NCBI GenBank assembly: GCA_964016885.1
Contig: OZ024747.1
Coordinates: forward strand, 86,614,001-86,678,000
Origin: Eledone cirrhosa
Lineage: Eukaryota
Length of the DNA stretch: 64,000 bases
Reading direction: 5' to 3'
In this document: positions 4,587 to 58,195 of the stretch, piece by piece
How positions within the stretch are numbered: position 1 is the first letter of the stretch
How the letters are laid out: each line of letters starts with the position of its first letter
The notes under the pieces: generated by a model
Database searches by the model: none
Seen by the model: only the letters and a program-made list of their open reading frames with translations
What the model was told of the DNA's origin: nothing
Made by a program: the position numbers and the translations under genes

Positions 4587-5074
4587 ACGTGTGTATAATG
4601 GTAGCTATGGTGCTTCCATAGGCGGTATGCCAAAATTAGCACTCAATATTCTTACAGAGCAGAGTGTGAATAGTATAAAAAAACGAAAAATCAGTGATGC
4701 ATCTGGACTCAGTTTATTGCGTGTTACAATTGTTTTGCCGGCAGGTAGCTCGAGACATGATCACTGTATGGATCTGGATCTGGCTGATTCTACGGCTGCA
4801 GGTTCCTTCGGATACATGCAATTCTTTCGGAGCACCTTCAAAAAACATCTTCCACTCTTGTAATACCATTGGCATGAAGGTGTCTTTTGATGATAACACC
4901 CCAGTGAGAAAATTTGCTCCAAAAGAATTGCATGTGTCCGAAGGAACCTGCAGCCGTAGAATCAGCCAGATCCATACAGTGATCATGTCTCGAACTACCT
5001 GCCGGCGAAACAATTGTAATACGCAATAAACTGAGTCCACATGCATCACTGATTTTTCGTTTTTTTTATACTAT
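4587..5074. mobile_element. Fold-back element family Q in (TA)n with HHR-like motif (4934-5022, +)
   Basis: Arms 4670-4834 and 4915-5074, tail 4587-4669. Motif reads gtgt CCGAAGG..long stem II..GAAA caattg TA atac. Confidence 0.8.
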
Positions 5075-5880
5075 ATATATATATATATATATATATATAT
5101 ATATATATATATATATATATATATATATATATATATAACTGGAACAGCAAGTAAATATCGAATACGTCCATATGAAAGAATTGGAAAGAAACTTCAAAAT
5201 CGAGCAAAGCTTAAATGCAGATCTATTAAAACAGACAATATATGATACTGAAATTGAAATTGTATCAGTTACCGCTGTTCATCGTCTGTATCGCTATATA
5301 CTCCCTAATTATTTAAAACATAATCCACCACAAGAAATCAGTGACAGCGATGCTGATAAAAACAAAAGTGTCGACGATGTTGACGACAGCAAAACTACAG
5401 TAAATTAAATGAAACATTGTAAAATTGATATCGAAAGAAAAATAGAATATTTCTTTTCTCCAGTTATTTTTAAACTCTGTAATTAACGGTAAGTTAATCT
5501 ATATGGTATCGTTGTAAAACATATCGTTGGCAACATTATGATAATTATCATCATCAACAGTAACAACAGCAACAAAAGCAGCAGCAATGCTATCAACATA
5601 TGCAGTTGTTCCCAAACCAACAACTTGTTAATGTTACTTGTAAATACGATCATGCCACCAGCACCACCATCACTATCACCCCGATAACGACGACTACCAC
5701 AACCTCCATAAATACTACTGCATCGACTGGATTTTCAAGAAGTTATTGTGTTTTCTTAAAAGAAAAAATTAAATTAAATTAAATAAAAATAATAAAAGCG
5801 AACAAAATTTAGCTATTTTAGTCTTTGATTTCTGCGTTTAAAGATTTTTTTCGATCATATTCTTTTGAGAATACAAAATA

Positions 5881-5983
5881 TAATTGTTTCTATTTTTGGC
5901 ACAAGGCCAGCTATTACTCCAGTGTATTACTGGTACTTTATTTTATCGACCACCGTAAGGATGAAAGGCAAAGTTAACCTCGG
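5881..5983 (-). mobile_element. SINE S1 (short subfamily), 3' half
   Basis: Matches the 3' half of 62852-63040. Confidence 0.8.
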
Positions 5984-7072
5984 CAATGGCTAAATATATC
6001 TGGATAAAATAAAATTCTGAATTTCGTTTTCCCATTTTTGTTGTTATTATTGTTATCATTGTTGTTGTTGCTACTGTTGTTGCTCTTGCTGCTGGTATGC
6101 AAGATATACGATTTCTAACCTGGCAGATTTTCAGTATTTACCAAGTAGAACTGAAGAAATATACGTTTATTCATTTATTTATTGAAATAAAAAACATCAT
6201 TGTCTTCGGGAGACTCAGAATATCTTGGAGTTATTTAACATACTGGGTGAGAAACATGGTTTGTCATGTTTGGATATTTAAACATAATTATATTTAAACT
6301 ATGATGCCTGAAGGTTTGTGTTTCTGCTATCATATTAAGCACAACGAAGGAGTAGAGAAAAAAAAAGGTTTTGCTGATAGTCATGTTACTGATTCCTTTC
6401 GACTGTAAAGTCGTATTTTACGAGAATATTTCTCGCATTCCAAATGTAACTATACTTTTTAAAAACTATTTTATACTGAAGCTAATAGGTTCAATAACAG
6501 ACAATAACATTAACATGCTTCGCAAAGTAAGAGTACGCACCGGAGTGATCACTCACTCCATTCAAAACGTATTCATTTCCTTTATTTCCAATCTGTTGAA
6601 GATAGGAACTACGTATTTCCCACAATTTTGCACCGAAACTAGTAATTTCAATGGAAGACATAATAATATAAAACTACTTATTAAAACATGAATATTGACA
6701 AGTATTGAGATTACTATATTTAGAGTTCATTTCCATTTATATTTCCTGAAAAAGAAAGTTATACTCATACATTTACTTAAAAGGAAATTGATATTTATAA
6801 TGTTCTAATGCATTTATTTTGTAAATGTCACTGGTTTGGAGACAATACATCCACGTGTTTCTTTTTCATGTTATTTACCTACTTGTAGGTGGCGTTGTAG
6901 TCAAGTCGTTCGTGCATCAGATTAGAAATGCCTCGGTATTTGTTTAGACTCACTGCACTCTGCGTTAAAATCCCACCGAGATCAGTTTTGCTTTTCCTCT
7001 TTTGAAAATCAATAAATATAGTACCAGTCGAATAATGGAGTTGGTATTCCTCCCCACCCTTTCTCTCTCCCC

Positions 7073-7330
7073 CTATCTATCTATCTATCTATCTATCTAT
7101 CTATCTATCTATCTATCTATCTATCTATCTATCTATATAAATAAAGAAATCTATCTATCGATATATCTATCTATCTATCTATCTATCTATCTAAATAAAG
7201 AAATCTATCTATCTATCTATCTATCTATCTATCTATCTATCTATCTATCTATCTATCTATCTAATCTATCTATCTATCTATCTATCTATCTATCTATCTA
7301 TCTATCTATCTATCTATCTATCTATCTATC
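7073..7330. repeat. (CTAT)n microsatellite
   Basis: Directly visible. Confidence 0.97.
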
Positions 7331-7494
7331 TCCATCTATTTGCGTCTTTCATTCTTTTGAAGAAATCAGCAGGTTTGCTGAGCTAGGTTTGCTGAGAAGG
7401 ATGAACTTTGCAATGTCTAAAATACAAATATGTCAGGACGGCGTCCTAACGCCCTCATCAGGTGTTAACAGAACTTTACCTTTTATTTGTATAT

Positions 7495-7790
7495 GAAAGC
7501 GTGTGGCTTAGTGTTTAGGTTGTTTGGTTCATGATAATAAAATCACAAGCTCGATTTCGGGCGGTATGTTGTGTTCTTGAGCAAGACTCCTTATCTTACG
7601 TTGCTCTAGTCTACTCAGCTGAAACAATGTGTTGTACCTGTTATTTATAGAGCCAGCCTAATCACGCACTGTGTCACACTGAATCTCCATAACAACTACA
7701 TAAATAGTATGTATGCCTATGGAATAAACAACCACGTGCACGTTAATCTTCTGAGCAACTGCAACAATTGGTGAAACTGACGGAGGCCCA
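7495..7790 (+). mobile_element. tRNA-derived SINE (family S2), diverged
   Basis: GCGTGTGGCTTAGTG A-box-like start. CTTGAGCAAGAC..TTAT.T.ACGTTGCTC is shared with 53346-53466. Confidence 0.7.
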
Positions 7791-55560: not shown

Positions 55561-56258
55561 CATTAGATAAAATATATACAGTATATATATATATATATAT
55601 ATATATATATATATATATAATTGGAAATCAGTAAAATCGAATCTCTGGCGGTTTGCAAGTAAATTCGGCCTACTTATATTAATCTGTTATTTTAATAAAT
55701 ATATATATATATATATATATTTATATGTATATATATATATATATATATATATATATATATATATATATATATATATATATATATATATATATATATATAT
55801 ATACAAAAATGAGGTAAATATCTCACTGAGTACTAAGTACCCATAGAGATATATAGGGTGTCTATAATATAATTGTTGTTCTATGGTACTAATTAGAGAT
55901 ACCAGAACTATAAAAATTGATGAGCAGAACAAACAAACATTAAACAATCCTTTAAATAAATTAAAAAATAATTTAACTATCTACCTGTTCATAATATATA
56001 TATATATATACATATATATATATATATATATATATATATATATATATATATAAATATATATATATATATATATATATATATTTATATATATATATATATA
56101 TTTATATATATATATATTTTTATATATATATATATACTGTATATATTTTATCTAATGATTCTATGAACTTACTTTCTTATATATATAAATATATATATAT
56201 ATATATATATATATATATATATATATATATATATATATATATATATATATATATATAT

Positions 56259-56415
56259 AATTTTTAATATAGATGAGATTCTACAGGACTAGAACTGTTT
56301 CATTCTTTAGAAATCATCAGGAATTATTATATATATATATATATATAATTTTTAATATAGATGAGATTCTACAGGACTAGAACTGTTTCTTTCTTTAGAA
56401 ATCATCAGGAATTAT
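56259..56415 (-). ncRNA. Tandem pair of family B hammerheads (56276-56324, 56364-56412)
   Basis: Two direct copies with an 88-nt period, each consisting almost only of the HHR, separated by (TA)n. Confidence 0.85.
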
Positions 56416-57513
56416 TATATATATATATATATATATACATATATATATATATATATATATATAAAAGAAACTATAAAAACTAGATTGCCAGTTTCTAACA
56501 CGATCAGACCACACCCCATATGCAATTTCTTAATGTGCAGCGATGATTTATGTATTTTACTACTTTCCACTGCACTTTCAACAACGAGTAAGCTGCAAAC
56601 TATGGTGCATCGACGAAACTTTGCATATAATATAAATGAGGTTATACTGCCACGATACTTTAATATTTCGTTACGCAATAGGTGGAAAGTAATTTGAGAA
56701 AATGTAAAATAAAGCCGGGAAATCAAAGAAAATGGACGTGCCAGAAAACGTAGAGATAAATGATGTGATTCCTACTATAAAAACGAAACGTATGAGATAA
56801 CAATGACTTTATTATTTTCAACGAGTTTTTTTTTACTGAATATTTCTAGAAAAATAATTTCTTTTGACAACTGAAGAATGCTGAGGGTTAAATGAATTAG
56901 TTTTTGTTTTATTTTTCACTTAAAATGTTTATGAAAATATAATTATATATCATATTATTATGTTTACAGAAAAGTCTGTGAGATGAAGAGGTTTGATCCC
57001 ACTGCACAGCTTTTGGAAAAGTTTTTACTACCTTGTGCTATACTGTACGAGTGAATATTTTGTAGACTGAAACAGGGAAAAGCCCCGGCATTATATACGA
57101 TCAAATTTTAGTTTAGAACAAGCAAAAAATTAAACACAGGCAAAAAAGTTATAAGCAAGGAAAATTGGTGTACAATGCAGGAGTCAATACAGTCAATAAG
57201 GCATGCATGAGGAAAGGGTTATAATGCAGTTGAAATAAACATATTTTGTGTGGGGTGATAAAGCATGTTATAATTGTTATAAATGTTTAAGATAGTGTGC
57301 AATTTGTTAGAGAGGCATGTGGTGATAATGTAGGTATTTGTTATGTAAGGTGTAATGCAAAGCACTTGATAGAGTTGAGTATGTGTGTTCTTTCAAGCAC
57401 AACTTCTTTTTAACCCCTGACTCTCCACATGATGCCTTTGACACTAATAACAATTATGTACCCTAAATGTTCTAAATGACTAGGATTTTAGTTACATGTT
57501 TCGACATTCCTTA

Positions 57514-57560
57514 TGCTCCGATGATTCCAGACTTTTCTCTGGAAGAAACAATTGTCAGCA
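57514..57560 (+). ncRNA. Type I hammerhead with U4C core variant (element about 57097-57700)
   Basis: tgct CCGATGA ttccaga-cttttc-tctggaa GAAA caattg TC agca. A 24-bp inverted repeat links 57097-57120 and 57567-57590. Confidence 0.78.
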
Positions 57561-57746
57561 AATAAATGTTCTAAACTAAAATTTGATCGTTTTAACACTG
57601 TGTATCTCAACTCTGTAAACCACTTGAAAATTTGCATTGAGCCTTTTGTCATACCGGTAACCGGCTAGTACATAGTACTACCCTACATATTTATAGTTAT
57701 ATCAAACATATATAAATATAAATATTCTTATTACTATATATATATA

Positions 57747-58195
57747 CAATATATTAACAAATGGAAACTATATTTATAAAACCATATTTATTTCATTATA
57801 CATATTTCAAGGGCCACCAAGGCAAACTATGGTGCGCTTTCATCAGATAAAATATAATATAGGTTAGTTTTATAAATAAATATTGACATACCCTGACAAA
57901 ATGCAACCATTCTGGTTGGAATCTCCTGCAGATTCCAACCAGAATGGTTGCATTTTGTCAGGGTATGTTAATATTTATTTATAAAACTAACCTATATTAT
58001 ATTTTATCTGATGAAAGCGCACCATAGTTTGCCTTGGTGGCCCTTGAAATATGTATAATGAAATAAATATGGTTTTATAAATATAGTTTCCATTTGTTAA
58101 TATATTGTATATTTACTCCAATAATTTGTTGAGTGCTTTATATCAGTTATAAAAATATTTTGCTTGTTGTATCCCAACAAATTAAATATAACCTC
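57747..58195. mobile_element. HHR-element family D, near-perfect palindrome; HHRs at 57789-57854 (-) and 58000-58065 (+)
   Basis: Arms 57747-57924 and 57930-58107 with a 5-nt spacer; tail to 58195. Confidence 0.92.

Follow-up and report, generated by a model that had tools for sequence, protein, structure and literature searches.

We analysed a 64,000-nucleotide stretch of DNA from Eledone cirrhosa (assembly GCA_964016885.1, contig OZ024747.1, positions 86,614,001 to 86,678,000 of the forward strand), referred to throughout as the window and numbered from its first letter; the host genome is 3.0 Gb in size and dense in microsatellites. An earlier note on this DNA had described a hairpin, RCTC-N-GAGY, at nine sites in the tails of repeat families labelled B, C, D, G, H, I, K and Q. 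We found that the hairpin belongs to one clade of Penelope-like elements (PLEs), the Hydra clade, in which the available sequences indicate that it is conserved across many animals, and that it usually occurs there as a pair bracketing the tail. With a probability that we put at roughly two in three, these twin hairpins of Hydra-clade PLEs and their dependents are RNA binding sites for the element's reverse transcriptase (RT)-endonuclease, fixing the points at which copying starts a few nucleotides 5' of each stem.

The hairpin motif and the elements that carry it

All nine sites were recovered in the window with offsets of at most 1–2 nt, and they sit in the longer arm of an inverted repeat between (TA)n runs, the exception being a tail-only fragment of family G at 25662. 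The family K site is present but decayed, the canonical ACTC...GAGTACT hairpin being found in other K copies. Once microsatellites had been removed, the window held 11 motifs of the type first described (with the 3' RCY), compared with a mean of 1.87 and a maximum of 8 in 100 block-wise dinucleotide shuffles, which confirms the enrichment. A refined descriptor, derived from the metagenome set introduced below and then applied to the window, gave 7 matches against a shuffle mean of 0.04 and a maximum of 1, and a microsatellite lay 46–73 nt downstream of every one of the seven. In this refined motif RCUC leads into an upper stem that varies, a U(U/C/A) bulge of 2 nt and GAGY, after which comes RCU. 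The original description had overlooked the 2-nt bulge, the covariation of the upper stem, and the other hairpin that lies beyond the tailed end. A slightly wider descriptor gave 365 matches in 1.32 Mb of family-biased loci from this genome, falling into 22 clusters and 10 singletons.

The Hydra clade, as defined by Craig et al. (2021, PMC8557442), comprises PLEs with a C-terminal endonuclease (EN+) and a single RT plus GIY-YIG open reading frame (ORF) bearing RW(K/R), DKT in place of DKG, a CxCX5C linker, CxxC and CxH motifs placed around the conserved E and N residues, and no CCHH; its members carry a hammerhead in the pseudo-long terminal repeat (pLTR), target (TA)n, leave an inverted truncated copy and a one-sided tail, and tend to be under 3 kb. 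A Pfam GIY-YIG search of the Eledone genome returned 150 scored matches from 10,597 candidates, mostly CCHH-type PLEs, and in the flank of one match lay a different PLE whose 3' end matches family G. The G unit of ~3.2 kb consists of a 2.14-kb ORF, a ~1.0-kb 3' untranslated region (UTR) and the tail. Its 713-codon frame, open in 5 of 10 fetched loci (e.g. L161, L163), encodes an RT followed by a C-terminal GIY-YIG endonuclease, with RWR, DKT, CxCX5C and CxxC/CxH motifs and no CCHH; Pfam gave no match to the C-terminal fragment, and the endonuclease was recognised by motif. Used as a query, this endonuclease drew 57,761 first-look candidates from the genome. The ORFs of B, D and Q are visible in part only. 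RWR and DKT occur also in the B ORF and RWR in that of Q, and the C-termini of both G and D show the CxCX5C linker and CxxC/CxH with CCHH missing. For family D, at least 8 of 30 loci have a related endonuclease upstream of the hairpin region, read-through copies of B and Q enter Hydra-type ORFs, and (TA)n insertion sites were confirmed for the Hydra-type families. In a quick protein tree of 20 two-hairpin metagenome rows and 7 genome rows, with the named Hydra proteins not among the rows, the G, B, Q and D proteins formed one clade on long branches (SH-aLRT, the Shimodaira-Hasegawa-like approximate likelihood ratio test, 100), which fell within the metagenome relatives and away from the three CCHH-type ORFs. 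By these motifs, family G carries the stated marks of the Hydra clade, and B, D, G and Q can be assigned as the 3' ends of autonomous Hydra-clade PLEs.

Other families appear to be dependents. Family H consists of non-coding tandem units of ~535 nt with a type I hammerhead in each (L228, L239), features by which we class it as a non-coding dependent resembling the non-long-terminal-repeat (non-LTR) retrozymes. Family C, which appears to have a non-coding unit of ~230 nt in which a 5' hammerhead core was not found, is probably a dependent as well; parent elements of I and K were not found. The hairpin families are thus unalignable as DNA, yet they are related by descent or dependence, and the earlier characterisation of them as otherwise unrelated was not borne out, the proteins of B, D, G and Q forming a single clade. 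An origin as a miniature inverted-repeat transposable element or a Helentron-type DNA element was considered and rejected, as the arms are variably 5'-truncated copies of the 3' ends of RT elements.

Hammerhead cores are canonical in B, carry a GAAAU variant in D and read CAGAAGA in most G copies; I, C, K and Q, as seen in the window, retain just the 3' half in the tailed arm. The hairpin lies ~20–50 nt past the core in B, D and G and ~300 nt past it in the H unit, at odds with the fixed spacing to the hammerhead that had been proposed. An Rfam scan of the window with E up to 1 gave no hammerhead or other relevant family, its matches being microsatellite-driven microRNAs below gathering scores. 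The abundant and young family G mostly has CAGAAGA in place of CUGANGA (L131-L160; window 11071-11119), and to judge from this core the family may not need an active ribozyme in order to spread.

Outside the Eledone genome, a protein search returned 347 relatives with E up to 1e-30, of which 44 were aligned together with G; no relatives were found in viral contigs. The metagenome set, retrieved with this alignment and taken from the best 80 of 289 confirmed loci, comprised 77 loci in 60 clusters. For the 44 clusters that offer 150 nt or more ahead of the ORF, hairpins were counted within 200 nt of its start. A strict hairpin occurs at least once in 33 of these 44 clusters (0.24 in shuffles) and twice in 20 (0 in shuffles), and ORF interiors held a single hairpin in 73,681 nt. 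In these loci hairpins 1 and 2 are 55–83 nt apart, the hammerhead lies 24–77 nt from hairpin 1, and hairpin 2 sits 2–39 nt ahead of the ATG. By eye, the published Hydra consensi (PMC8557442) show the canonical motif in Hydra-2_Amil, Hydra-2_Ajap and the sea-cucumber Hydra-1_Ajap, where it stands twice ahead of the ATG, and variant motifs in Hydra-1_Crog and Hydra-1_Amil. Some metagenome Hydra elements (L317, L325, L335, L359) have three hairpins; the first of these is short and variant in form, with GAGTAG at its end, and such elements would predict a third class of ends.

The motif did not extend to the CCHH-type PLEs of the Eledone genome, where no hairpin was found between the ORF stop and the (TA)n in any of 26 3' regions (17,067 nt), a sample representing a handful of families in which many copies may be tail-less. 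In the sets compared, the motif is clade-restricted.

Stem pairing, copy ends and competing explanations

We examined pairing on anchored hairpins, since loops vary and a MAFFT alignment of nine hairpins was uninformative. The base of the stem varies in pairs, A-U against G-C, as had been claimed, and a GUUC/GAAC variant with the same bulge occurs at 32060-32086 (-), where it follows the tail-less end of another family (32090-32908) by ~6 nt. Among 53 metagenome hairpins the bulge is UU in 38, UC in 9 and UA in 6, and the pair directly above it is Watson-Crick in 52 of 53 (C-G 33, U-A 19), against a shuffle mean of 14.7 and a maximum of 26. When the bulge was set instead to 0, 1, 3 or 4 nt, the same test gave Watson-Crick pairs in 1, 1, 6 and 11 of 53. 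For pair 2 the Watson-Crick count is 33 of 53, and for pair 3 it is 32 of 52, all four pair types being used. The split between C-G and U-A partly tracks hairpin identity, hairpin 2 having C-G in 19 of 20, and within hairpin 1 the pair above the bulge switches five times on the quick protein tree, three of these switches being forced by starred branches. The inner length is 8–21 nt in the metagenome set and longer in G. Folding energies are modest, as might be expected if a protein stabilises the element. In Hydra-type hammerheads, stem III often reads ACTC-N-GAGT, the letters of the tail hairpin's basal stem (L272-L300; PMC8557442 file S2), a likeness that may reflect either chance or a shared origin.

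The elements run in the order ORF, 3' UTR, hammerhead, hairpin 1, tail, hairpin 2 and the ATG of the next tandem ORF. The hairpin is usually present twice, with ~55–90 nt between the two, and the second shows only in tandem read-through copies; it starts a few nucleotides past the stop of tailed copies in G, H, D, Q (one locus) and C (three loci), with an ATG downstream of it in G, D and Q. Tail-less copies stop ~2–7 nt before hairpin 1 and tailed copies ~2–7 nt before hairpin 2. The position relative to element ends is thus fixed, as had been suggested, but the hairpin lies 3' of the ends and not at a fixed distance inside the tail. Tail-less ends have their modes at -5 (B, C, K), -6 (H), -4 (Q), -2/-7 (G), -4/-7 (I) and -7 (D) relative to hairpin 1; for C and K, whose window copies are atypical, other copies were used for mapping, with few K arms (5 of 30). 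Copies of G were picked by their endonuclease protein, and hence blind to end type, and among the 27 scorable of 30, 11 ended before hairpin 1, 11 at 2–5 nt before hairpin 2, 2 read through and 3 ended elsewhere. In hit-table counts, 17 of 18 Q pairs and 9 of 10 H pairs set a tailed arm against a tail-less partner; second-arm matches of K and I were left out because those queries were self-inverted. The metagenome loci gave a comparable picture when each 3' copy was set against its own 5' copy: of 38 rows, 12 at a contig end and 10 reading into the ORF were dropped, and of the 16 scorable, each from its own cluster, 10 stopped 0–7 nt ahead of a hairpin, which was hairpin 1 in 4 cases and hairpin 2 in 6, with 2 more stopping before variant hairpins recognised by eye.

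End positions identical to these are also predicted if the hairpins direct cleavage of the RNA, or formation of its 3' end, a few nucleotides upstream, the RT then copying from ordinary RNA 3' ends. We regard such processing as decidedly unlikely, as the one PLE tested in vitro initiates internally on unprocessed RNA (PMC11167929) and a second nuclease motif is not evident. The composition just before the stems bears on another explanation, in which ends are set solely by annealing of the A/U-rich template to the cut (TA)n and the hairpins are adjacent but have another job, such as RNA packaging or translation of the next ORF. Ahead of the hairpins, A/T makes up 85–92% of positions -5 to -8, the ATG follows closely on hairpin 2, and family B, discussed below, functions with a non-canonical second site, all as this explanation would have it; however, the two longest TA tracts near the end of G sit inside hairpin 1 and none of the 27 copies stops there, and the non-coding families H and C retain both hairpins. 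We therefore think it very improbable that annealing acts alone.

Several observations weigh against hairpins that fix the copying starts. Four of the 16 metagenome 3' ends lie elsewhere (-11, -21, -86 and +25), and 11 of the 44 clusters lack a strict hairpin, some having variants and some having no element sequence upstream. Among the six published Hydra consensi, Hydra-1_Obim shows no clear copy of the motif by eye. In family B the second site is non-canonical, either a short GCAC/GUGC stem without the bulge or a remnant 3' arm alone, and the family still yields many young tailed copies; a pattern search with 116 matches had suggested a canonical second hairpin in B, a candidate that was rejected when the loci were read. 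No second hairpin was found for I and K, no read-through copy having been available for either and no search having been aimed at one. TA microhomology blurs end positions by a few nucleotides, and family D has a second mode at -11/-12. In hairpin 2, pairs 2 and 3 are often unpaired, and in the upper stems G-U is only weakly in excess of C-A (13 vs 6), so that sequence does not settle whether the hairpins act as RNA or as DNA.

That weak excess, together with the conservation in sequence of the basal RCTC/GAGY and RCT letters, would suit hairpins that act as DNA, being recognised by the GIY-YIG endonuclease in complementary DNA (cDNA) or a tandem DNA intermediate and cut a few nucleotides 5' to make both kinds of end. 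The tail of the D. virilis Penelope is needed for endonuclease recognition of plasmid DNA, according to earlier work cited in PMC11167929, and PMC8557442 attributes the tail to EN-mediated resolution. Against this, the variable inner length, the one-sided bulge and the compensatory pairs suit a folded single strand and not duplex DNA, and purified PLE protein produces both start sites from RNA alone (PMC11167929). We consider action as DNA unlikely. The earlier proposal, that the hairpin is a cis-acting signal for the mobilising protein, is partly supported. It is in keeping with conservation throughout the clade, with base changes that preserve pairing, with survival of the motif in non-coding dependents and with its fixed place beside the ends, and it is from these that we infer binding.

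If the hairpins are RNA binding sites for the RT-endonuclease, the endonuclease would cut (TA)n and the protein, held on a hairpin, would offer the cut 3' end the A/U-rich bases that lie directly 5' of that hairpin. A tail-less arm would result from priming at hairpin 1 and a tailed one from priming at hairpin 2, and the PLE 'tail' would therefore be the spacer between two hairpin signals. More speculatively, one RNA with both hairpins loaded may prime both break ends, one per hairpin, giving an inverted pair with a one-sided tail. We put forward only tentatively the fuller version of this idea, namely that a twin RNA signal, shared across phyla by Hydra-clade PLEs and retrozymes, loads a protein dimer on one RNA, each subunit priming cDNA at one side of a double-strand break in (TA)n, a few nucleotides 5' of its own hairpin. 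Were it true, the tail, its one-sidedness and the inverted pLTRs would be explained by one mechanism, and the signal would serve as a transferable RNA tag that directs RT-driven insertion to TA repeats.

Copies and neighbouring features in the window

Family B, the 3' end of an autonomous Hydra-type PLE, has its hairpin 1 at 12476..12497 (-), with a type I hammerhead (CUGAUGA...GAAAC, by pattern match) upstream at 12520..12568 (-). The whole insertion occupies 12436..12892 between (TA)n runs and pairs this tailed (-) arm with a tail-less inverted arm at 12819-12892 (+). Hairpin 1 of a B-related element lies at 13888..13910 (-), and two further B-related copies (30999-31021 and 14122-14145) read GAAT where others have GAGT, and each thereby loses one basal pair. 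Family D, other copies of which lie ~1.2 kb downstream of a Hydra-type endonuclease, has hairpin 1 at 51348..51370 (+) with a hammerhead-like motif at 51232..51296 (+; CUGAUGA...GAAAU, by pattern match), a second copy at 58115..58137 (+) with its hammerhead-like motif at 58000-58065, and a variant with an altered 5' arm at 20275..20298 (+) that was missing from the original list. Hairpin 1 of family Q is at 4638..4665 (-); at locus L398 a canonical hairpin 2 follows, and the Q copy reads on past it into a Hydra-type ORF.

In family G, the 3' end of an autonomous PLE, a longer copy carries hairpin 1 at 11006..11043 (-) with a hammerhead-like motif of non-canonical CAGAAGA core upstream, and the tail-only fragment carries it at 25662..25710 (+). 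Tail-only G fragments lie between microsatellites at 25662-25745, 49144-49202 and 51485-51546; they would be very short products that begin at the hairpin-2 site and stop within ~90 nt.

Family H, whose non-coding unit is tandem and has a hammerhead, shows hairpin 1 at 12330..12358 (+), a hammerhead core at 11850..11908 (-; pattern match) and, a few nucleotides beyond the usual tailed end, hairpin 2 at 12038..12056 (-), the sole second hairpin visible in the window. Family C has hairpin 1 at 54481..54507 (+) and extra copies at 13752..13778 (+), 25426..25452 (-) and 49019..49045 (-), its hairpin 2 being visible in read-through loci L399-L401. Family I has a hairpin 1 with a 1-nt bulge at 20579..20601 (+), in a copy with the hammerhead 3' half alone, and a second copy with one mismatch at 55297..55319 (+). 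The decayed family K copy is at 24477..24498 (-).

An inverted element at 3838-4509 with two hammerhead cores (4338 + and 4037 -) has a GAGCACC 3' arm in its tail without a matching GCTC 5' arm, and is possibly an exception to, or a decayed variant of, the hairpin rule. CCHH-type PLE 3' ends lie at 51678-51890 (matching L050/L054) and 55388-55559 (matching L039/L058), and 31599-31900 matches the latter family; these ends have (TA)n termini and tails without the hairpin motif. Long inverted elements within (TA)n at 9226-10358 and 22923-23460 are likewise without it. A 347-codon open frame at 16349-17392 (-) is a rhodopsin-family G protein-coupled receptor exon (Pfam 7tm_1), which we take to resemble a vasopressin/oxytocin-type receptor. 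The window also holds a ~190-nt dispersed repeat that looks like a short interspersed element (46546-46735, 58554-58738, 60062-60246, 62853-63040, 63782-63964 and 38162-38478, one pair being head-to-head) and two copies of a 151-bp tandem repeat (17955-18293).

Comparison with known systems

The elements, their hammerheads, TA targeting and the one-sided tail are already known; what appears to be new is the twin hairpin as a feature of a known element class. We found no description of it in the open-licence literature, while closed journals, Repbase notes and supplements may hold one. How PLEs choose start sites, and how the one-sided tail and inverted ends arise, are standing questions, which a short covarying twin motif at a fixed distance from both ends narrows. 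To our knowledge, one PLE has been reconstituted so far, with the RNA signal narrowed to a 172-nt region only. The hairpin also offers a sequence handle for assigning non-coding hammerhead repeats to the clade that mobilises them, and an aid to annotating PLE boundaries.

The elements described here share with the Hydra clade its ORF motifs, (TA)n targets and inverted truncated copy with a one-sided tail (PMC8557442). They differ in their tails, which are ~50–90 nt long here compared with 30–40 nt in that account, and in the 3' UTRs of at least 1 kb of G and D, the G unit of ~3.2 kb exceeding the reported tendency to stay under 3 kb. The parts of PMC8557442 drawn on here describe no tail signal, and the word 'hairpin' has 0 occurrences in its main text.

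A likeness is also offered by Poseidon PAc of Anolis (Frangieh et al. 2024, PMC11167929), for which internal RT initiation was reported at two sites downstream of the hammerhead that bracket the genomic tail, with an AT-rich target, extension of both strands and a predicted dimer. Paired RT starts bracketing the tail are, by analogy, what we propose for the Hydra elements. Poseidon, however, belongs to another clade, its starts fall within the ORF, at a stem-loop that is AC-rich, and the parts of that paper drawn on here do not define a conserved twin motif.

Family H resembles the metazoan non-LTR retrozymes (bioRxiv 10.64898/2026.07.22.740005) in being a non-coding tandem with a type I hammerhead and PLE-like insertion. 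The retrozyme paper linked such repeats to PLEs from their distribution and pLTR similarity, and the portion consulted names no cis signal, whereas H and C here share the twin hairpin itself with autonomous Hydra elements.

PLE RTs are the sister group of telomerase RT, and a template-positioning rule would for this reason be of wider interest. In the template-boundary stem of telomerase RNA and in the 3' UTR core of R2, a protein-bound RNA stem would likewise position a related RT on its template; the stem described here differs from both in lying 3' of the first copied base and in being present twice.

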